Positions 10,588-19,848 are shown, counted from the stretch's first letter. The stretch is DNA of 23,081 bases from a virus (IMGVR_UViG_2711768067_000018); one strand, 5' to 3'. Notes: generated by a model not told the origin, from the letters alone. Translations and numbers: made by a program.

Positions 10588-10760
10588 TGTCAGGAGTCCT
10601 GAATAGTGATTAGAGGAGTCACATGTCGGCATCAGTTTCCCGACGATGCGCATCCTCCGCCATCAGTCCCGGATGGCTTATCACTGACACAACAGCACCT
10701 TAGCGAATCGCGGGGCGCGACTCAGTAGCCTTGCCGTGTATTCATCACGGCGAGGTATTC

Positions 10761-12533
10761 ATGACCATCACCACAGACACCACTCTTTTACACGACCCGC
10801 GTCGTCAGGCGGCGCTGCTGTACTGGCAGGGATTTTCCGTGCCGCAGATTGCCGCCATGTTGCAGATGAAACGCCCGACGGTGCAGAGCTGGAAGCAGCG
10901 CGACGGCTGGGACAGCGTTGCCCCCATCAGCCGTGTCGAAATGAGTCTGGAAGCGCGGCTGACCCAGCTCATCATCAAACCGCAGAAAACCGGCGGTGAC
11001 TTCAAGGAAATTGACCTGCTCGGACGCCAGATTGAACGACTGGCACGGGTCAACCGTTACAGTCAGACCGGCAACGAGGCAGACCTTAATCCGAACGTCG
11101 CTAACCGCAACAAAGGCGGGCGTCGCAAACCGAAAAAGAATTTTTTCAGTGACGAGGCCATCGAAAAGCTGGAGCAGATTTTCTTTGAGCAGTCTTTCGA
11201 ATATCAGTTGCACTGGTATCGCGCCGGGCTTGAGCACCGCATCCGCGATATCCTGAAATCCCGCCAGATTGGCGCGACGTTTTATTTTTCCCGCGAGGCG
11301 CTGCTGCGCGCCCTGAAAACCGGTCATAACCAGATTTTTCTGTCGGCCAGTAAAACGCAGGCGTATGTGTTCCGCGAATACATCATCGCCTTTGCCCGGC
11401 TGGTTGACGTTGACCTGACCGGTGACCCGATTGCCCTGGGCAATAACGGCGCAAAACTGATTTTTCTCGGCACCAACTCCAACACCGCACAGAGCCATAA
11501 CGGCGACCTGTACGTCGACGAGATTTTCTGGATCCCGAATTTTCAGGTACTGCGTAAGGTGGCATCAGGTATGGCCTCACAGAGTCACCTGCGCTCGACC
11601 TATTTCTCCACCCCGTCCACGCTGGCGCACGACGCCTACCCGTTCTGGTCGGGGGAGCTGTTTAACCGGGGACGCGCCAGCGCCGCTGAACGCGTGGAAA
11701 TCGACGTCAGTCATAACGCCCTTGCCGGTGGGCTTCTCTGTGCGGACGGCCAGTGGCGGCAGATTGTCACCATTGAGGACGCGCTGAAAGGCGGCTGCAC
11801 GCTGTTCGACATTGAGCAGCTCAAACGTGAAAACAGCGCCGACGATTTTAAAAACCTGTTCATGTGTGAATTTGTTGACGACAAGGCGTCGGTGTTCCCG
11901 TTCGAGGAGCTGCAACGCTGCATGGTCGACACGCTGGAAGAATGGGAAGACTATGCGCCGTTTGCCGCCAATCCGTTCGGCTCCCGCCCGGTATGGATTG
12001 GTTACGACCCGTCACACCGTGGCGACAGCGCCGGATGCGTGGTACTGGCACCGCCGGTGGTGGCCGGTGGCAAATTCAGAATACTTGAGCGTCACCAGTG
12101 GAAAGGCATGGACTTTGCCACTCAGGCTGAATCCATCCGCAAACTCACTGAAAAATACAACGTCGAATACATCGGAATTGATGCCACCGGCCTCGGTGTC
12201 GGCGTGTTCCAGCTCGTGCGCTCGTTCTATCCCGCCGCGCGCGATATCCGCTACACGCCGGAAATGAAAACCGCAATGGTGCTCAAGGCCAAAGACGTCA
12301 TCCGCCGTGGCTGTCTGGAATATGACGTCAGCGCCACCGACATCACCAGCTCGTTTATGGCTATCCGCAAGACCATGACCAGCAGCGGACGCAGCGCCAC
12401 GTATGAGGCCAGCCGCAGCGAGGAAGCCAGCCACGCCGACCTCGCCTGGGCGACCATGCACGCCCTGTTAAATGAGCCACTCACCGCCGGTATCAGCACC
12501 CCGCTGACATCCACCATTCTGGAGTTTTACTGA
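10761..12533 (+). CDS. P: Terminase ATPase (large) subunit P
   Basis: Start at ATG 10761 (MTITTDTT...), preceded by GCGAGGT; 590 aa, the size of P2 gpP. The ORF-track start at 10731 is a TTG with no RBS. Transcribed divergently from O as in P2. Confidence 0.9.
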   Translation: MTITTDTTLLHDPRRQAALLYWQGFSVPQIAAMLQMKRPTVQSWKQRDGWDSVAPISRVEMSLEARLTQLIIKPQKTGGDFKEIDLLGRQIERLARVNRYSQTGNEADLNPNVANRNKGGRRKPKKNFFSDEAIEKLEQIFFEQSFEYQLHWYRAGLEHRIRDILKSRQIGATFYFSREALLRALKTGHNQIFLSASKTQAYVFREYIIAFARLVDVDLTGDPIALGNNGAKLIFLGTNSNTAQSHNGDLYVDEIFWIPNFQVLRKVASGMASQSHLRSTYFSTPSTLAHDAYPFWSGELFNRGRASAAERVEIDVSHNALAGGLLCADGQWRQIVTIEDALKGGCTLFDIEQLKRENSADDFKNLFMCEFVDDKASVFPFEELQRCMVDTLEEWEDYAPFAANPFGSRPVWIGYDPSHRGDSAGCVVLAPPVVAGGKFRILERHQWKGMDFATQAESIRKLTEKYNVEYIGIDATGLGVGVFQLVRSFYPAARDIRYTPEMKTAMVLKAKDVIRRGCLEYDVSATDITSSFMAIRKTMTSSGRSATYEASRSEEASHADLAWATMHALLNEPLTAGISTPLTSTILEFY

Positions 12534-13567
12534 TGAGCAAGAAAAAAGGGAAAACACCGCAACCTGCGGCAAAAAAAATGACCGCCAGCGCCCCGAAAAT
12601 GGAAGCATTCACCTTTGGCGAGCCGGTACCGGTACTCGACCGCCGTGACATTCTGGATTACGTCGAGTGCATCAGTAACGGCAGATGGTATGAACCACCG
12701 GTCAGCTTTACCGGTCTGGCAAAAAGCCTGCGTGCTGCCGTGCATCACAGCTCACCGATTTACGTCAAACGTAATATTCTGGCCTCAACATTTATCCCGC
12801 ATCCGTGGCTTTCCCAGCAGGATTTCAGCCGCTTTGTGCTGGATTTTCTGGTGTTCGGTAATGCGTTTCTGGAAAAGCGTTACAGCACCACCGGTAAAGT
12901 TATCAGGCTGGAAACCTCACCGGCAAAATATACCCGCCGTGGTGTGGAAGAGGATGTTTACTGGTGGGTGCCGTCCTTCAACGAGCCGACACCTTTCGCG
13001 CCCGGCTCCGTGTTTCATCTGCTGGAGCCGGATATTAATCAGGAGCTGTACGGCCTGCCGGAATATCTCAGCGCCCTTAACTCTGCCTGGCTGAATGAGT
13101 CGGCCACGCTGTTCCGCCGCAAGTATTACGAAAACGGCGCACATGCCGGATACATCATGTACGTCACCGATGCCGTGCAGGATCGCAACGATATCGAAAT
13201 GCTTCGCGAAAACATGGTTAAGTCGAAAGGCCGCAACAACTTTAAAAATCTGTTTCTCTATGCCCCGCAGGGGAAAGCTGACGGCATTAAAATTATCCCG
13301 CTCAGTGAAGTGGCAACGAAGGACGATTTTTTTAATATCAAAAAAGCCAGCGCCGCTGACCTGCTGGACGCGCACCGCATCCCCTTTCAGTTGATGGGCG
13401 GCAAGCCGGAGAACGTCGGGTCACTGGGTGATATTGAGAAAGTGGCAAAGGTCTTTGTCCGCAATGAGCTTATCCCGTTACAGGACAGGATTCGGGAAAT
13501 AAACGGCTGGCTCGGTCAGGAGGTCATCCGCTTTAAAAACTACTCACTGGACACTGACAACGGCTGA
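12533..13567 (+). CDS. Q: Portal protein Q
   Basis: 344-aa ORF, the size of P2 gpQ; its ATG overlaps the P stop (TGATG). Confidence 0.9.
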   Translation: MSKKKGKTPQPAAKKMTASAPKMEAFTFGEPVPVLDRRDILDYVECISNGRWYEPPVSFTGLAKSLRAAVHHSSPIYVKRNILASTFIPHPWLSQQDFSRFVLDFLVFGNAFLEKRYSTTGKVIRLETSPAKYTRRGVEEDVYWWVPSFNEPTPFAPGSVFHLLEPDINQELYGLPEYLSALNSAWLNESATLFRRKYYENGAHAGYIMYVTDAVQDRNDIEMLRENMVKSKGRNNFKNLFLYAPQGKADGIKIIPLSEVATKDDFFNIKKASAADLLDAHRIPFQLMGGKPENVGSLGDIEKVAKVFVRNELIPLQDRIREINGWLGQEVIRFKNYSLDTDNG

Positions 13568-13993: not shown

Positions 13994-14935
13994 ATGCAAG
14001 GTAAAGTTGACGAACAGCAATCCAATGATATTGAAGCTGAGTTTGGATACTATCCAGTAGAAGTTAACGTTGAAACTGATGATTTTTCTTTACTTACTTT
14101 ACCCGGTCTAGCGGAAAAAACAAATCTTATAAACAATCACAGAAATGTTATTAACGGTTGGATATACCCAGGAAACCAAGAAGTATATAACCTCAATGGA
14201 GGCATATCCACAATGCCTTTTAGCCAACGAGTATTTGGCTTACCCAAAACACACTCACTAAAATTAAAAAATACATCTTCACTAGAAACTCTCAATTTTG
14301 CTGTGTGGTGTCTGTCTTTTTTCAAAGGGATAAGATTAACAACTACTGATGCCGGTTTTTTAGACGCAACCCCAATAAAACCCAGCAAATTAACTGACTT
14401 TATTCTGGTCAAGTGCTCTGAAAAAGAGGTTATAGAATTAGCACTCAAATACATGTCTAGCGAGACAAAAACCAAACTCGCACCAATAAATATAGCAGCA
14501 ATAGTGCATGCACTATTTTTATCCCAAAACCCACAATACCTTAGCTTCGAAAAATTCCAGTATCTTTATATGGCACTGGATAGTTGCTTTGCTTTAACAT
14601 GGGCAGAAAAGAACAAGTGTACAGAAAAGACTCTAAATCACTCCAGGCGCTTGAAGTGGATCTGCAAAACTTATGGAATACCACGACCATCATGGGTTAC
14701 AGGCAAAAAAAACATTACAAACATCCGCAATGAAAACTTTCATGAAGCTATGTTTCATGGTCAACCACTTGGCTTTACCACTATTAACAATTATCAATAT
14801 GGAGATGACATATTACAACAAATGCAGGCTTTAATTTGCCGATTACTCGTTGCGATTCTTGGTGTTAACGCCCCCGATTACATCACATCGAACGTGAACT
14901 CTCGTGAATATCATTCACTAACATTAAAAATATAA
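13994..14935 (+). CDS. Hypothetical cargo protein (313 aa) with HEPN-like R-N-x3-H motif; candidate abortive-infection RNase
   Basis: Uninterrupted AT-rich ORF with GGAG 6 nt upstream of the ATG; motif RNENFH at residues 245-250 (nt 14726-14743); composition clearly different from the phage core. Confidence 0.6.
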   Translation: MQGKVDEQQSNDIEAEFGYYPVEVNVETDDFSLLTLPGLAEKTNLINNHRNVINGWIYPGNQEVYNLNGGISTMPFSQRVFGLPKTHSLKLKNTSSLETLNFAVWCLSFFKGIRLTTTDAGFLDATPIKPSKLTDFILVKCSEKEVIELALKYMSSETKTKLAPINIAAIVHALFLSQNPQYLSFEKFQYLYMALDSCFALTWAEKNKCTEKTLNHSRRLKWICKTYGIPRPSWVTGKKNITNIRNENFHEAMFHGQPLGFTTINNYQYGDDILQQMQALICRLLVAILGVNAPDYITSNVNSREYHSLTLKI

Positions 14936-14950
14936 AACGACTAAAAATAC

Positions 14951-14975
14951 TCTCCAGTAACAATAAGTACTGGAG
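14951..14975. terminator. Hairpin between convergent cargo genes (likely terminator, mainly for the minus-strand transcript)
   Basis: TCTCCAGTA-N8-TACTGGAGA inverted repeat (9-bp stem); a T-rich tract follows on the minus strand (tattttta). Confidence 0.45.
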
Positions 14976-15017
14976 ATGTATTATCACTAAAACCAATAAA
15001 AAATCACAACTAATGCT

Positions 15018-15617
15018 TTACTTAGATAGTTTGTCTTTAATTATATTCAGAACACCAATTATTAATTCACTGATTGGCGTGGCCAACTCAATAGTATTAG
15101 ATGTCGACTTTGTTCTAAAGTCTTTATCTGTCGGGTGTTGAAATGCTGATTTAAGAAGAGTCAAAAGCAAAGTTAAACCCACACCAAGGATGAATGCAAC
15201 AATAGCTATTAGAGAACTGGCCGATAACCAATCGGTGGATAAACCAGAAATAGATTTTCTAACTTTATTAGTGTCTGAAGATGGTGTTATCCTCTCATCA
15301 GCCATCTTCGGATCCGAAGATAAAGCAGAACATTTTTCTGCTGAAACACAAGTTTGTGTATCTACTTTTTGTGTTATCGCTGCGGCAATACTGCTTTTCG
15401 CTTCCAGCAAGCCATTTCCAACAGCCAAAGCAAAGTTAAGCCCCTGCCATAGAAATGTACAAGCAAAACAAAGCACAACGGCAGAGAGCACTAATCGCAT
15501 ACTTCTACGCTCTATACCATCCCGTCTATCTCGCCTTATAAGGATATCAGGATCTAAATCGCCCTTAGGAGTGGTTCCTTGCTCTGGGGACTGTCCAGAT
15601 AAATCAATATCAGCCAT
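15018..15617 (-). CDS. Hypothetical two-transmembrane-segment protein (199 aa); candidate membrane effector
   Basis: Two hydrophobic stretches (about residues 42-68 and 144-166) flanking a hydrophilic region, charged N-terminus; AT-rich; downstream of and co-oriented with the ImmA-like gene. Confidence 0.65.
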   Translation of the reverse strand: MADIDLSGQSPEQGTTPKGDLDPDILIRRDRRDGIERRSMRLVLSAVVLCFACTFLWQGLNFALAVGNGLLEAKSSIAAAITQKVDTQTCVSAEKCSALSSDPKMADERITPSSDTNKVRKSISGLSTDWLSASSLIAIVAFILGVGLTLLLTLLKSAFQHPTDKDFRTKSTSNTIELATPISELIIGVLNIIKDKLSK

Positions 15618-15620
15618 AAA

Positions 15621-15658
15621 AAAATCACCCTTACATGTACAAACGTAAAGGTGATTTT
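15621..15658 (-). promoter_or_regulatory. Terminator-like hairpin with U-tract that overlaps the RBS of the membrane-protein gene
   Basis: 13 of 14 bp inverted repeat AAAATCACC(C)TTAC / GTAA(A)GGTGATTTT with a 10-nt loop; on the minus strand the 3' arm (containing the GGGTGA Shine-Dalgarno-like sequence) is followed by TTTTTTT and then the ATG at 15617. Confidence 0.5.
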
Positions 15659-15683
15659 AAACAGGTTAAAAGTTAAAGGCTAA

Positions 15684-16169
15684 TTAATAAGCCATTCCTA
15701 AGCTCTTTAAGCGCCAATGCATAGCGGCTTCTGATACATTAAAGATGCTTGCTAATCTCAAAGTGCTATCAATACCTTCTCTGGATACCAATTGACGTAT
15801 AGCAGACTCAGGCATTAACAACTCAGCAGCAAACTTGTTTGCTTCAACCTCACGGTAATCACGAGCACCTGTTGAATAATTCCCGACATTATCCCGATGG
15901 TACTCTCCGTCCTGGGTATGCCCCAGCACATGATGACCTAACTCGTGTGCAACAGTAAAACGTTGACGATTAGAATGTTCACTAGAATCAAAATAAATCC
16001 TATGGACACCCTTTTTGATGACAGCCAGACCGCTTAACCCATCGTTGTTATAAGCCGATTCCTCAAGTGCTTCAACACGAGCACCCCACGCTTTAGCAAG
16101 CTTAAACGGATCGACAGGTAGTCGGCGATCCCAATAGCGGTCAAGCAGTTTTTTAGCTGCATAGCTCAT
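15684..16169 (-). CDS. ImmA/IrrE-family zinc metallopeptidase (HEXXH)
   Basis: 161-aa ORF with HELGHHVLGH (HEXXH) and a downstream EANKFAAELLMP motif typical of ImmA/IrrE (COG2856-type) peptidases; AGGAGG 5 nt upstream of the ATG. Confidence 0.85.
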   Translation of the reverse strand: MSYAAKKLLDRYWDRRLPVDPFKLAKAWGARVEALEESAYNNDGLSGLAVIKKGVHRIYFDSSEHSNRQRFTVAHELGHHVLGHTQDGEYHRDNVGNYSTGARDYREVEANKFAAELLMPESAIRQLVSREGIDSTLRLASIFNVSEAAMHWRLKSLGMAY

Positions 16170-16205
16170 GGTTGCCTCCTACGTTAAAAAAGTTAAGTAT
16201 GCACA

Positions 16206-16234
16206 GCCATATCACAGTTGTTATTTTATGTCAA
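16206..16234 (-). promoter_or_regulatory. Candidate sigma70 promoter for the ImmA-like gene
   Basis: On the minus strand: TTGACA (16234-16229), 17-nt spacer, TGaTATGGC extended -10 (16211-16206), about 35 nt upstream of the start codon. Confidence 0.5.
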
Positions 16235-16890: not shown

Positions 16891-17004
16891 ATGAAGAAGT
16901 GCTATTACTGCATTCTCGTTCTGGCCCTCTTTGGCTATCCATATGGTAGTCCGAGTGGTTTGTCAGTAAACGTCAGTAATATCCATGTAAGTATTTTTCT
17001 TTAG
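16891..17004 (+). CDS. Small hydrophobic ORF (37 codons), hypothetical
   Basis: AGGAGG with a 4-nt spacer before the ATG; translation MKKCYYCILVLALFGYPYGSPSGLSVNVSNIHVSIFL; followed immediately by a strong terminator. No homology evidence available. Confidence 0.3.
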   Translation: MKKCYYCILVLALFGYPYGSPSGLSVNVSNIHVSIFL

Positions 17005-17016
17005 TATGCTTCAAAC

Positions 17017-17047
17017 AAAAAAACCACCTGCCAGGGTGGTTTTTTTG
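17017..17047. terminator. Bidirectional rho-independent terminator
   Basis: AAAAAAACCACC-TGCCAG-GGTGGTTTTTTT: stem flanked by an A-tract on one side and a T-tract on the other; located between the small plus-strand ORF and the 3' end of minus-strand gene A. Confidence 0.65.
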
Positions 17048-17306: not shown

Positions 17307-19583
17307 TCAAATGGATAACAAAAATCCCGGCCAATCATCAGCGACCTGATAAGTGAAAGGTTTCCCGTCATAATTTACGGTCGCGCCACGCGCCAGCGCC
17401 TCAAGCTCCCATCGTTGCGGCCTGATACCGTTCTGAGCGAGATCAACGCGGATACGGGTAATTTGCAATCGTTCCGACCGGGTCAGTCTGGCCGATGGTG
17501 CAATTTCATGCGGTTTTAACGGGCTTCCGTTTCTTTGCTGACGGTTTGGCGTTCTCCGGTCGTGTTTTAATGCGCCCCTGAGCGCCCTCACGACCTCCGG
17601 GTCATTCCATTCGATAACATCGTCATCAACCAGATTAAGCACTGCTGCGGCGTGCTCAGAAGGTGTGGGAGCCGGTAACGAAGTATCACCACCGGTGAGC
17701 TTTCCACAGTTATTGACAGGACTCCGAGGCGCGGCGATGCCGCTTTTTAAAGTCAAAGGCTCAACGACCGGAACTTTCGGCACAATGCGCCAGTCCGTCG
17801 TTCTGGTGATATGAATATGACGCGCGCCGAGATGCGGCGCGTAAATGCCGACCACTCTCTCGACTTCTTCCTCGTACTCGTTAACGTCATCCGACAGACT
17901 ACGGGCGACTCTGACAGTCTGGCAATCGCGCGGAACATTTGCCCCGCCCTGCGCGCTGATATACAGCGCAAAATCACCACTGTCTGCGGCGGCGCGTGCA
18001 GCCTCGACGCGCTCGTCAAACTCATCAGCAATGCTGACGCCGCGAGGCAATTTGCGTAGTTCACGGTAAGCCCCCATTGTCGGCAGGCCAACCGTTTTAA
18101 ATTGCGGAATGCGCCACGTTGACGCCCATGCGGTAACAGCCGCTGCAGTGTCTTTCAACGGCCTGCCGGTGTCGTTATCGAGCTGACCATCCAGTGCATA
18201 GCCGTCGATGTTTTTTGAAATGTATTTCGCGATATATCCCGCAGCACCGCCCCGGTTAAGGTGTTTTGCCTGAAAACGGTTTCGCGCGGCTCCTCTTTCG
18301 TCGCCATCCTCTTTGAGCGCATAGCGACGCATGATTTCGATAATCTGGTTACGCTGGCGTGGATGACAAAAAAGCATCATATGCCAGTGCGGCGTTCCGT
18401 CGTGGTGTGGCTCGACGACTCGCAAACCGTAGACCTGTAAATCATTATCCTTGAATGCCGTGCGCATCAGGCTCCAGATACGGCAGAGATAACGCTGCGC
18501 ATCCTTTGGATTAAATGCCTCATCGTTCCAGCCGTGATTAAGCTGAACGGTTTTACTTTCGCCTTTTCCGACCTGACGTGTCGGGTGATACTTTGACGGC
18601 GCGGTCAGCGTGATAAACATCCCCACATCACCCTCTGCGGCGGCGTAACGCTCAATACCGGCAATGGTGTTCATCAGCTCCATCCGGCGAATTTCAGGAT
18701 TAGAAATACTGCCCATCACCTTACTGATAAGGTCGATGCGCTCGCCGGTTTCCCTGTTTTCAAGGTCACACGATTTAAGAAATTCCAGATTTGCCTGGCG
18801 GCGCGCACGCACATCACGAATGGCGTGTTTACTGGCATAAGGAGAACGGTCTTTATTGACCTCCCCGACAGCTATCAGTAACGCCTCATGCCAGCGCATA
18901 CGCTGGCCTTTAAGCTGATGAGTCCACCACTCATCGTTAAACAGGCGGGCAATGGCAGAATATGCCTGCCTCGTGGTCATCTGTCCTTTACGGTATTTTT
19001 TCCAGTAGAGCGGGGAAATATTGAAAGCACGTGCAGCGCCAGCAACATGACCATACAGGTGAGCCTGCGCCTCATCCGTAAACAGCGATTCTTTTTCACC
19101 ATGCGCATCAACCCATGCATCGCAGAGTTCCTCATACATCATGAAAAGCTGCGATGAGATACGGGCGGCAAACTTTTTCAGCTCCTTGTCATTCATTCCC
19201 GGCAGGCGCGCATAGTGGTCACGCTCTGCCAGAAACAGCAACGACGCGTCGGTGTTCATTTCATGGCGCTGATTCACACGCTCAATGCGCGGCCATAAAC
19301 GACGCTGAAAAGTAGATGTGAGGAAATAAAACCCGTGCACCGGGCTTTTATTGCGCCGGATGTAGTCATAGCGTGAAGTAAACAGCGAGCGCAAAAAGTA
19401 AGGCAGGCGGTTAATCGTGGATAAAACACCTTGCACCTGACGCATCTCGTCACGTGTAAGAGGTCTTTCGCGCCCGACAGCCTCGCGTGGCGCGTTCCAT
19501 GCATAAGCACCGGTAAACGCCTTACCGGTGCCTGCGGTAAATGCTGACGGAGGGACAAAACGCCCGGAGGCTTTAACGGCCAT
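17307..19583 (-). CDS. A: Replication initiation protein A (rolling-circle nickase)
   Basis: Long ORF in the P2 gpA position; start chosen at the ATG at 19583 (MAVKASGRF...), as the ORF-track start at 19625 is a TTG. About 758 aa, close to P2 gpA. Confidence 0.9.
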   Translation of the reverse strand: MAVKASGRFVPPSAFTAGTGKAFTGAYAWNAPREAVGRERPLTRDEMRQVQGVLSTINRLPYFLRSLFTSRYDYIRRNKSPVHGFYFLTSTFQRRLWPRIERVNQRHEMNTDASLLFLAERDHYARLPGMNDKELKKFAARISSQLFMMYEELCDAWVDAHGEKESLFTDEAQAHLYGHVAGAARAFNISPLYWKKYRKGQMTTRQAYSAIARLFNDEWWTHQLKGQRMRWHEALLIAVGEVNKDRSPYASKHAIRDVRARRQANLEFLKSCDLENRETGERIDLISKVMGSISNPEIRRMELMNTIAGIERYAAAEGDVGMFITLTAPSKYHPTRQVGKGESKTVQLNHGWNDEAFNPKDAQRYLCRIWSLMRTAFKDNDLQVYGLRVVEPHHDGTPHWHMMLFCHPRQRNQIIEIMRRYALKEDGDERGAARNRFQAKHLNRGGAAGYIAKYISKNIDGYALDGQLDNDTGRPLKDTAAAVTAWASTWRIPQFKTVGLPTMGAYRELRKLPRGVSIADEFDERVEAARAAADSGDFALYISAQGGANVPRDCQTVRVARSLSDDVNEYEEEVERVVGIYAPHLGARHIHITRTTDWRIVPKVPVVEPLTLKSGIAAPRSPVNNCGKLTGGDTSLPAPTPSEHAAAVLNLVDDDVIEWNDPEVVRALRGALKHDRRTPNRQQRNGSPLKPHEIAPSARLTRSERLQITRIRVDLAQNGIRPQRWELEALARGATVNYDGKPFTYQVADDWPGFLLSI

Positions 19584-19848
19584 ATGAGCCAAAAGCCTCT
19601 GAACAACGCTTGCTGAGTTGCTCAACCTGCGCGTTTAAATCAGCAAAAGATTTTGCGCTTCCGGTCAGAATATCGTGATGCATCAGGCCGGAAACGAGCT
19701 GGCCTAATTTCGGGTAATAACCAACCACCGCCAGCCATTCCTGACCGGCGTTTTTACCGCTTTCCGCTCTCTTTTTCTCGTGGAGAATAAACTGAAAGCT
19801 GTCACTGGTAACGACATAACGTTCGCCAATTTCAATACGAATACTCAT
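19573..19848 (-). CDS. Small early protein (P2 orf83-like), hypothetical
   Basis: 91-aa ORF; its start overlaps the upstream ORF stop and its end overlaps the A start, part of the B-A operon. Confidence 0.7.
   Translation of the reverse strand: MSIRIEIGERYVVTSDSFQFILHEKKRAESGKNAGQEWLAVVGYYPKLGQLVSGLMHHDILTGSAKSFADLNAQVEQLSKRCSEAFGSYGR

Follow-up and report, generated by a model that had tools for sequence, protein, structure and literature searches.

A conserved hairpin with intrinsic-terminator anatomy spans the Shine-Dalgarno sequence between a phage ImmA-like peptidase gene and a membrane-protein gene

Introduction

Why would a gene begin immediately behind a structure that looks made to end its own transcript? 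This question is raised by a two-gene cassette in a temperate phage of Escherichia coli, in which an ImmA-like peptidase gene is followed by the gene of a small membrane protein. A preliminary description of this DNA had proposed that an inverted repeat between the two genes both attenuates read-through from the peptidase gene and occludes translation initiation at the membrane-protein gene, as would be expected for a tightly repressed and potentially toxic product. Here we report a computational analysis of the whole stretch of 23,081 nucleotides that carries the cassette (IMGVR_UViG_2711768067_000018, referred to as the window), together with homologous loci from other elements and hosts.

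Results

The window is a P2-like E. coli prophage that is 99.9% identical to NZ_CP154406. Its portal and gpA genes (Table 1) enclose the interval that Rousset et al. 2022 (PMC9122126) describe as a cargo hotspot close to cos in phages of the P2-like group. In the window this hotspot is AT-rich, with a GC content of 36-42% versus 52-58% in the backbone, and contains a 313-aa ORF, a 199-aa ORF, the peptidase gene and 1.1 kb without annotated genes.

Table 1. Coordinates of features in the window
Feature	Position	Strand	Remarks
Terminase gene	10731-12533	+	faces gpA
Portal gene	12533-13567	+	faces gpA
313-aa ORF	13994-14935	+	phrog_5937; RefSeq hypothetical protein WP_001161722; convergent with the two-TM gene
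Terminator-like hairpin, bidirectional	14951-14976	both	closes the operon; common to the two-TM gene and the convergent 313-aa ORF
Gene of the 199-aa two-TM protein	15018-15617	-	ATG 15615-15617
Met40 codon	15498-15500	-	just before TM1
Intercistronic spacer	15618-15683	-	from the peptidase TAA to the two-TM ATG
U7 tract	15618-15624	-	ends at the start codon; first four U pair with the upstream A-run
Conserved RNA hairpin	15621-15658	-	5' arm AAAAUCACCUUUACGU (15658-15643); loop UUGUAC (15637-15642); 3' arm AUGUAAGGGUGAUUUU (15636-15621)
Inverted-repeat arms	15621-15634 and 15645-15658		repeat finder
SD-like sequence GGGTGA	15625-15630	-	inside the 3' arm
161-aa ImmA/IrrE-type (Peptidase_M78) gene	15684-16169	-	stop TAA 15684-15686
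Peptidase SD AGGAGG	16175-16180	-	strong, conserved
Likely promoter of the two-gene operon	16206-16234	-	-35 TTGACA 16229-16234; 17-nt spacer; TG-extended -10 TATGGC 16206-16211
37-aa hydrophobic ORF	16891-17004	+	unannotated; MKKCYYCILVLALFGYPYG...; strong SD (CAGGAGGCGATATG)
Strong bidirectional terminator	17008-17047	both	AAAAAAACCACCTGCCAGGGTGGTTTTTTT; immediately 3' of the 37-aa ORF
gpA (replication endonuclease gene)	17307-19625	-

The peptidase gene and the two-TM gene would be transcribed as one operon from a likely promoter with a near-consensus -35 box. This predicted promoter and the peptidase SD are probably strong as well as conserved: the -35 box and a TGnTAAGGC/TATGGC box are kept at P2-hotspot, Pectobacterium and Enterobacter loci. 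No LexA box was found near the window promoter, and a LexA control of the operon in the style of phage 186 was therefore ruled out.

The 313-aa ORF has no match in Pfam, NCBIfam or PADLOC, and since it is missing at the other loci bearing the peptidase-TM pair, it is probably an independent single-gene cargo. The 1.1-kb stretch between the peptidase gene and gpA contains the 37-aa hydrophobic ORF and the adjacent terminator listed in Table 1. This short ORF, for which Pfam and Rfam gave no match, is kept in the related locus L002 and in the pFR104 insert discussed below; it is possibly a type-I-toxin-like gene or codes for a small membrane peptide.

The upstream gene of the cassette encodes a small metallopeptidase that RefSeq labels as an ImmA/IrrE family metallo-endopeptidase. 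It scores 75.6 bits with PF06114 (3.8e-21), for which the gathering cut-off is 22, and a zinc site composed of H75-E76-x-x-H79 and E107 can be read from its sequence and is kept in the plasmid homologue. Judged by family match and motif, the protein is a bona fide M78 (COG2856) enzyme. PADLOC profiles of capP (1.1e-30, the best), RmrA (6e-17) and PD-Lambda-2_B (1e-6) recognize it, and the best PDB match is to CapP (7t5t, 7.6e-7), over the peptidase core only (about residues 75-155 of 7t5t). With 161 residues, no HTH domain and no cysteine, the window peptidase is reduced to the catalytic core. No HTH gene lies beside it in the window or at any locus with the pair. More distant peptidase relatives (38% identity) occur on alphaproteobacterial plasmids within HTH-peptidase-exonuclease operons (L150 2130-4413 and L151 2094-4415), which is the canonical CapH/CapP-like arrangement; one of these operons adjoins a nucleotidyltransferase and SLATT pair.

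The downstream protein had been described as carrying two TM segments, and on this count hydropathy, invariant hydrophobic columns and the helices of an AF2 model agree. From the N-terminus, the 199-aa chain consists of a DLSG motif, a variable P/S/T-rich linker, TM1 (about residues 41-64), a Cys loop, TM2 (about residues 131-156) and an amphipathic helix. TM2 is near-invariant (AFILGVGLTLxLTLLK), the C-terminal helix is conserved as ELATPLSELI, and the loop between the TM segments contains a conserved Cys90/Cys96 pair that would fit a periplasmic location. TM1 is preceded by a basic juxtamembrane segment with an ERRxMR motif common to homologues. An N-in/C-in topology is suggested. Homologues also share M-x-x-x-DLSG at the N-terminus, separated from ERRxMR by the P/S/T-rich linker, which shows the ATG at 15617 to be the real start. 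Shorter products called by some annotators reflect a conserved internal methionine, Met40. At homologous positions (L006, L138, L140), some lineages have a perfect SD made of tandem rare Arg AGG codons (GAAAGGAGGGGGATG), and two isoforms are possible.

The sole family match of the two-TM protein is phrog_8096, of unknown function; no significant match was found in Pfam, NCBIfam or PADLOC. Foldseek searches of PDB and BFVD with the AF2 model, which is of moderate confidence (pLDDT 65), returned no match. The family is small: among 1.84 billion representatives it accounts for 53 clusters at 90% identity and for 57 at 50%.

After describing the two proteins, we turn to the junction between their genes. 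The gap measures 66 nt as proposed, and the repeat finder recovered the reported inverted repeat, with 14-nt arms of which 13 positions are complementary. The description of this gap as almost wholly repeat was too generous: the hairpin covers 38-42 of the 66 nt, or about 60%. In the sense (minus-strand) RNA the pairing extends to 16 contiguous pairs, two of which are G-U. The placement of GGGTGA, the sole SD-like sequence before the two-TM ATG, in the 3' arm and ahead of T7 and the start codon is as first described.

The fold is not weak, as it might have proved to be. The isolated hairpin folds with about -18 kcal/mol (-17.9 for 16 bp including the A-U extension; -14.1 for the 12-bp core), and in a context of 101 nt the RNA reaches -26.5 kcal/mol (z = -4.6), a value that none of 200 shuffled sequences matched. 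Opening the initiation region of the two-TM gene (-16 to +13) costs 24.2 kcal/mol, the highest value among 23 long-ORF starts in the window; the start of the peptidase gene costs 13.4 kcal/mol. Since the peptidase stop codon is about 23 nt or more away from the stem, a terminating ribosome would not open it. The stem is AU-rich in the window, with G-C in 4 of 16 pairs, and GC-richer in distant lineages (for example GCCACC/GGTGGC or GCCCTCA/TGAGGGC). A consensus terminator scan of the window did not call the hairpin; the scan seems to treat the A-U extension as part of the stem, so that the tail window retains too few T. An Rfam scan of the whole window at the gathering threshold also gave no match.

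Loci with homologues of the membrane protein were gathered from annotated phages, plasmids, assemblies, metagenomes and a Pseudoalteromonas P2-family phage. Every one of these loci has a 161-164-aa M78 peptidase gene directly upstream. With two exceptions, the spacer of about 55-75 nt closes with an A-run followed by a stem-loop and 4-8 consecutive U, and the ATG comes 0-2 nt further on. This layout occurs in about nine lineages with differing stems from Enterobacterales, Vibrio, Pseudoalteromonas and metagenomes, and in every Enterobacterales locus that we fetched. The exceptions are an Acinetobacter locus (L015), where the genes are separated by a 30-nt AT-rich gap, and Burkholderia phage Carl1, where they overlap by 4 nt.

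The sequence of the stem changes far more than its shape. Enterobacterial lineages share a constant outer stem (AAAUCACC/GGUGAUUU), and their inner stems vary by matched changes (UUUACGU/ACGUAAG-type in the window, AUUAUCU/AGAUAAU in L002, AUCAU/AUGAU on plasmids). Other lineages have stems of unrelated letters in the same place: AAAGCCACC...GGUGGCUUUUUU(U)AUG in L145-147, AAGCCACCC...GAGUGGCUUUUUUUAUG in L153, AAAGCCACU...AGUGGCUUUUUUUUAUG in L154, AAAGGCCAC...GUGGCUUUUUUUAUG in L013, AAGCCCUCA...UGAGGGCUUUUUAAUG in the Vibrio locus L014 and AGCCCUU...AAGGGCUUUUUUAUG in phage ACA1 (L148). Across hairpin lineages, SD-like purines (GGUGA, GGUGG, GAGGG or AAGGG) always fall within the descending arm. 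In an alignment of 17 sequences, 87.8% of cells are paired and both partners have changed in 7 of 16 pairs. Out of 500 column shuffles, none attained this covariation score, and controls with slid partners gave 29-66% pairing. Because pairing is kept while the stem letters turn over, we regard the hairpin as a selected structure of the sense RNA, and neither as a product of chance nor as a sequence-specific DNA operator. The comparison points to an RNA element with the anatomy of an intrinsic terminator that would also sequester the SD. The cis-regulatory half of the preliminary description, attenuation and SD occlusion, holds up as conserved anatomy with compensatory changes; termination and repression themselves would be the expected consequences of that anatomy.

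The module is rare, being present in 50 of 5426 complete E. coli genomes, but mobile. It moves among P2 hotspots, other prophages, a P1-like element, plasmids and chromosomal islands, and the two genes keep their spacer of about 55-75 nt in phage hotspots and other prophages as well as on plasmids and chromosomes. The pair also forms genes gp1 and gp2 of ACA1, an arctic P2-family phage of Pseudoalteromonas (L148, 277-1520), with a hairpin of its own (AGCCCTT...AAGGGCTTTTTTATG). A scan of viral sequences with the pattern AATCACC-N12-28-GGTGATTTTTT returned 120 stretches, nearly all unrelated, and the pair was present only in L030, L091 and L114. A profile search of genome contigs with the TM alignment gave no confirmed locus. 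In plasmids of Enterobacter and Vibrio, a gene for about 305 aa in the same orientation begins 44 nt 3' of the pair (L003 4485-5399, L004 4486-5406, L005 4486-5400). No family matches this gene, which shows no relation to the 313-aa ORF of the window and may represent a lineage-specific third component. A general three-gene system was rejected, since the 305-aa and 313-aa ORFs are unrelated and L002 and L006 have no third gene.

One orthologue of the cassette has been cloned before. A pair called 'Peptidase + TM' from the P2 hotspot of E. coli TA280 was placed with its native promoter on pFR104 and tested against eight phages, with no reported defence phenotype; it is listed among 'additional tested systems' (Table S2B) and not in the table of validated systems, and the text names only three other P2 systems as validated (PMC9122126). 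This insert is a direct orthologue: it comes from the same gpA-portal site and shares with the window both genes and the 1.1-kb leader upstream of them. The window differs by another TM allele and by the additional convergent 313-aa ORF. The printed start of the insert is identical to L002, the peptidase and TM protein of which are 87.6% and 56% identical to those of the window. L002 has the hairpin, and the tested construct retained it. The paper contains no discussion of this element. The published screen neither supports nor excludes a role in defence. The accessions WP_000763338, WP_000119270 and WP_001161722 had no match in the main texts of papers; two of them occur in the supplementary locus table of Rousset et al.

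Discussion

The explanation that we favour, with a probability of roughly 60%, is that the hairpin acts constitutively as an intercistronic terminator and as a block of the SD, and thereby holds the two-TM protein far below the peptidase. Such a device would do both jobs without the help of a protein. Stem and U-tract would form an intrinsic (Rho-independent) terminator that stops the majority of transcripts of the strong upstream promoter right ahead of the ATG, and in those that read through, the sole SD would be buried by the same stem. The outcome would be a fixed and very low ratio of two-TM protein to peptidase, an arrangement to be expected if the downstream product were harmful in excess and the upstream one controlling. 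The membrane protein would then be the dangerous partner. The U-run is invariant among stems that share no sequence, which marks an intrinsic terminator, since a hairpin with a purely translational role would not need it. The constant presence of SD-like purines in the descending arm in turn implies that read-through RNA has a buried ribosome-binding site. Speaking against this explanation are the AU-rich stem, which the terminator scan did not call, and the two distant relatives that lack the hairpin. The U-rich leader right before the AUG could also support S1-dependent initiation and so soften the translational block. Nascent-RNA folds of 18 loci revealed no conserved alternative pairing that could serve as antiterminator; the 5' arm is either free or engaged in weak, lineage-specific AU helices. 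A riboswitch or leader-type attenuator was thus ruled out, as these loci contain no conserved exclusive antiterminator or upstream sensor and Rfam gave no match.

Is the design itself a sign of a toxic product? In about 1.2 Mb of unrelated viral loci, a biased sample in that it was fetched by a related pattern search, we counted 13 other terminator-like hairpins in which the U-run abuts the start codon, an ATG, of an ORF no shorter than 100 codons. P2-type scaffold, baseplate and lysozyme-like genes are among those with such a junction. At the P2-type scaffold start of L053 and L067, in L112/L044/L099, L125, L066 and others, the 3' arm contains purines that resemble an SD; the junction before a scaffold gene reads, for example, GCCTCATCCATCCGATGAGGCTTTTTTATG. 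Hairpins that abut the ATG recur in phages and may follow a design that is general among them. Since ordinary structural genes have similar junctions, the design alone does not imply a toxic product. The specific trait of the present case is how strictly the design is conserved between the two cistrons of one small gene-pair family.

The same hairpin can be read in other ways. The two locks could be conditional: the membrane gene would stay off until, under infection or stress, termination is relieved or the stem is opened, and the two-TM effector would then be released. This could come about, for example, through an altered RNA polymerase, through a helicase or chaperone acting on RNA, through cutting of the 16-bp stem by an enzyme of the RNase III type, or through a trans-acting RNA. 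The very strong conservation of the double lock would be consistent with such a switch, as would the position of the module in defence and cargo hotspots of mobile elements and the absence of constitutive defence by the cloned orthologue, if the trigger was missing from the published panel. We consider this reading unlikely, given that neither a conserved alternative structure nor an upstream sensor sequence nor an Rfam match accompanies the hairpin, that the module includes no candidate trans factor, and that stem letters varying by lineage speak against a sequence-specific partner. Alternatively, the hairpin may mainly serve the upstream gene, as terminator and 3'-end stabiliser of a monocistronic peptidase mRNA (possibly as an Hfq-type 3' module). 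The overlap with the TM start would then be incidental to tight packing, and read-through RNA would yield useful levels of TM protein via the U-rich leader. Both the canonical geometry of A-run, stem and U-run and the comparable junctions in front of the P2-type scaffold gene and other phage genes with normal expression agree with this account. It is similarly unlikely in our estimate, because an ATG set 0-2 nt past the U-run in about nine lineages with different stems is hard to ascribe to packing alone, and because the SD-like purines always lie in the 3' arm.

The structure might instead steer the choice of start site, as the sdi structure of lambda S does, by suppressing the full-length 199-aa form in favour of Met40, so that two isoforms with opposing activities arise. 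Met40 is at least 90% conserved, the short form is the one called by some annotators, and several P2-hotspot lineages have the perfect rare-codon SD before it. Yet the internal SD is weak in the window (GAGCGTAGAAGTATG), many lineages have CGN codons, the methionine is lacking in L012, L014 and L148, and conservation of the N-terminal DLSG motif indicates that the long form is under selection. As an explanation of the hairpin this is very unlikely; a short isoform favoured by the hairpin is unlikely for the window and might exist in the lineages with a perfect SD. That the repeat works at the level of DNA, as operator of a dimeric protein, as cruciform or as recombination site, or that it arose by chance, is hardly credible. 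The palindrome is indeed near-perfect, but pairing survives sequence replacement in many lineages, G-U pairs are tolerated on the sense RNA only, the asymmetric U-run is conserved and the module encodes no DNA-binding protein; chance is excluded by the fold shuffles and the conservation. Two further candidates were rejected. RNA thermometers of the FourU or ROSE type rely on a marginal, mismatched SD hairpin that melts at 37-42 °C, and the stem found here is continuous over 12-16 bp with -14 to -18 kcal/mol at 37 °C. A leaderless mRNA from a promoter within the hairpin would need a -10 box, and by inspection no acceptable one is present at -12 to -7, nor in the lineages with other stems.

The peptidase places the cassette near several known systems. 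With CapP of the CapP/CapH regulators of CBASS and other immune operons, and with ImmA/ImmR and IrrE/DdrO, it shares the M78 (COG2856) family and an intact HExxH...E site, and CapP gave the best PADLOC and PDB matches. CapP, a protein of 291 residues, has two domains, a cysteine-switch loop and an inter-domain groove for ssDNA, as described in a preprint (bioRxiv 10.64898/2026.05.16.725639). With 161 residues, no cysteine and no second domain, the window peptidase can have neither such a loop nor such a groove, and an assignment as CapP was rejected. Both the CapH/CapP and the ImmA/ImmR arrangement were dismissed, as the adjacent HTH repressor that serves as substrate is missing at every locus with the pair. 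RosmerTA and PD-lambda-2 resemble the cassette in that an M78 peptidase accompanies a putative toxic partner on mobile elements (PMC9519451). The RosmerTA antitoxin RmrA is an HTH-M78 fusion beside the toxin RmrT, whereas the window peptidase lacks the HTH part, stands first in gene order and is accompanied by a two-TM protein without PADLOC match. Only the C-terminal peptidase part of the RmrA profiles was matched (about positions 146-290 of 360-400), and RosmerTA was rejected as well. An M78 enzyme without a nearby gene for an HTH substrate suggests that ImmA-type proteases may target proteins other than repressors. Because the usual repressor substrate is absent, it is a reasonable idea that the peptidase could act on the cytoplasmic tails of the two-TM protein. 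One may go further and picture the hairpin as the lock of a novel, HTH-less ImmA-type module, in which the peptidase activates or destroys the two-TM effector via its tails, and the hairpin, possibly together with the Met40 start, opens only in response to a particular trigger, for instance infection by phages that the published panel did not include, so that a membrane-disrupting or exclusion protein is released by a proteolytic and riboregulated defence or addiction system. We find this elaborate scheme distinctly unlikely, and casting the membrane protein as a toxic defence effector is speculation, set against one published screen with a negative outcome.

A closer parallel to the junction itself is the p95-tum-t95a-orf97 SOS operon of phage 186, which occupies the same P2-family position between gene A and cos and also consists of a small regulator gene, a terminator and a second gene. 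The element t95a is annotated as a partial terminator between tum and orf97, and expression of Orf97 blocks 186 infection. By analogy, t95a may be taken as a precedent for the logic of a terminator-split operon. The parts differ: Tum is DinI-like and unrelated to the window peptidase, Orf97 is unrelated to the two-TM protein, t95a lies 27 nt ahead of the start of orf97 and leaves the SD of that gene outside, and p95 has a LexA box, which the window promoter lacks. ACA1 gp1 has been described as homologous to the 186 antirepressor Tum (PMC10612066). A BLASTP comparison of the window peptidase with Tum shows no similarity, and we discard a relationship between these proteins.

The general principle is a known one. 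With intrinsic terminators, intra-operon attenuators and SD-sequestering hairpins, such as the expression platforms of riboswitches, the element described here has in common a stem-loop, a U-tract, an upstream A-run and an SD in the descending arm. It differs from these examples in having no aptamer, leader peptide, antiterminator or Rfam family, in lying between two cistrons and in placing the AUG 0-2 nt after the U-tract. A single stem-loop would thus damp both transcription and translation, and given that Rfam has no match, a description as a new motif of cis-regulatory RNA would be possible. The hairpin may explain why the cassette stayed silent when cloned with its native control region. 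It also provides indirect evidence for a dosage-sensitive two-TM protein and a testable signature of a mobile two-gene cassette. In relation to the known systems, we regard this junction as a new, family-specific example of a familiar regulatory principle, set on an uncharacterised variant of the ImmA-type modules.
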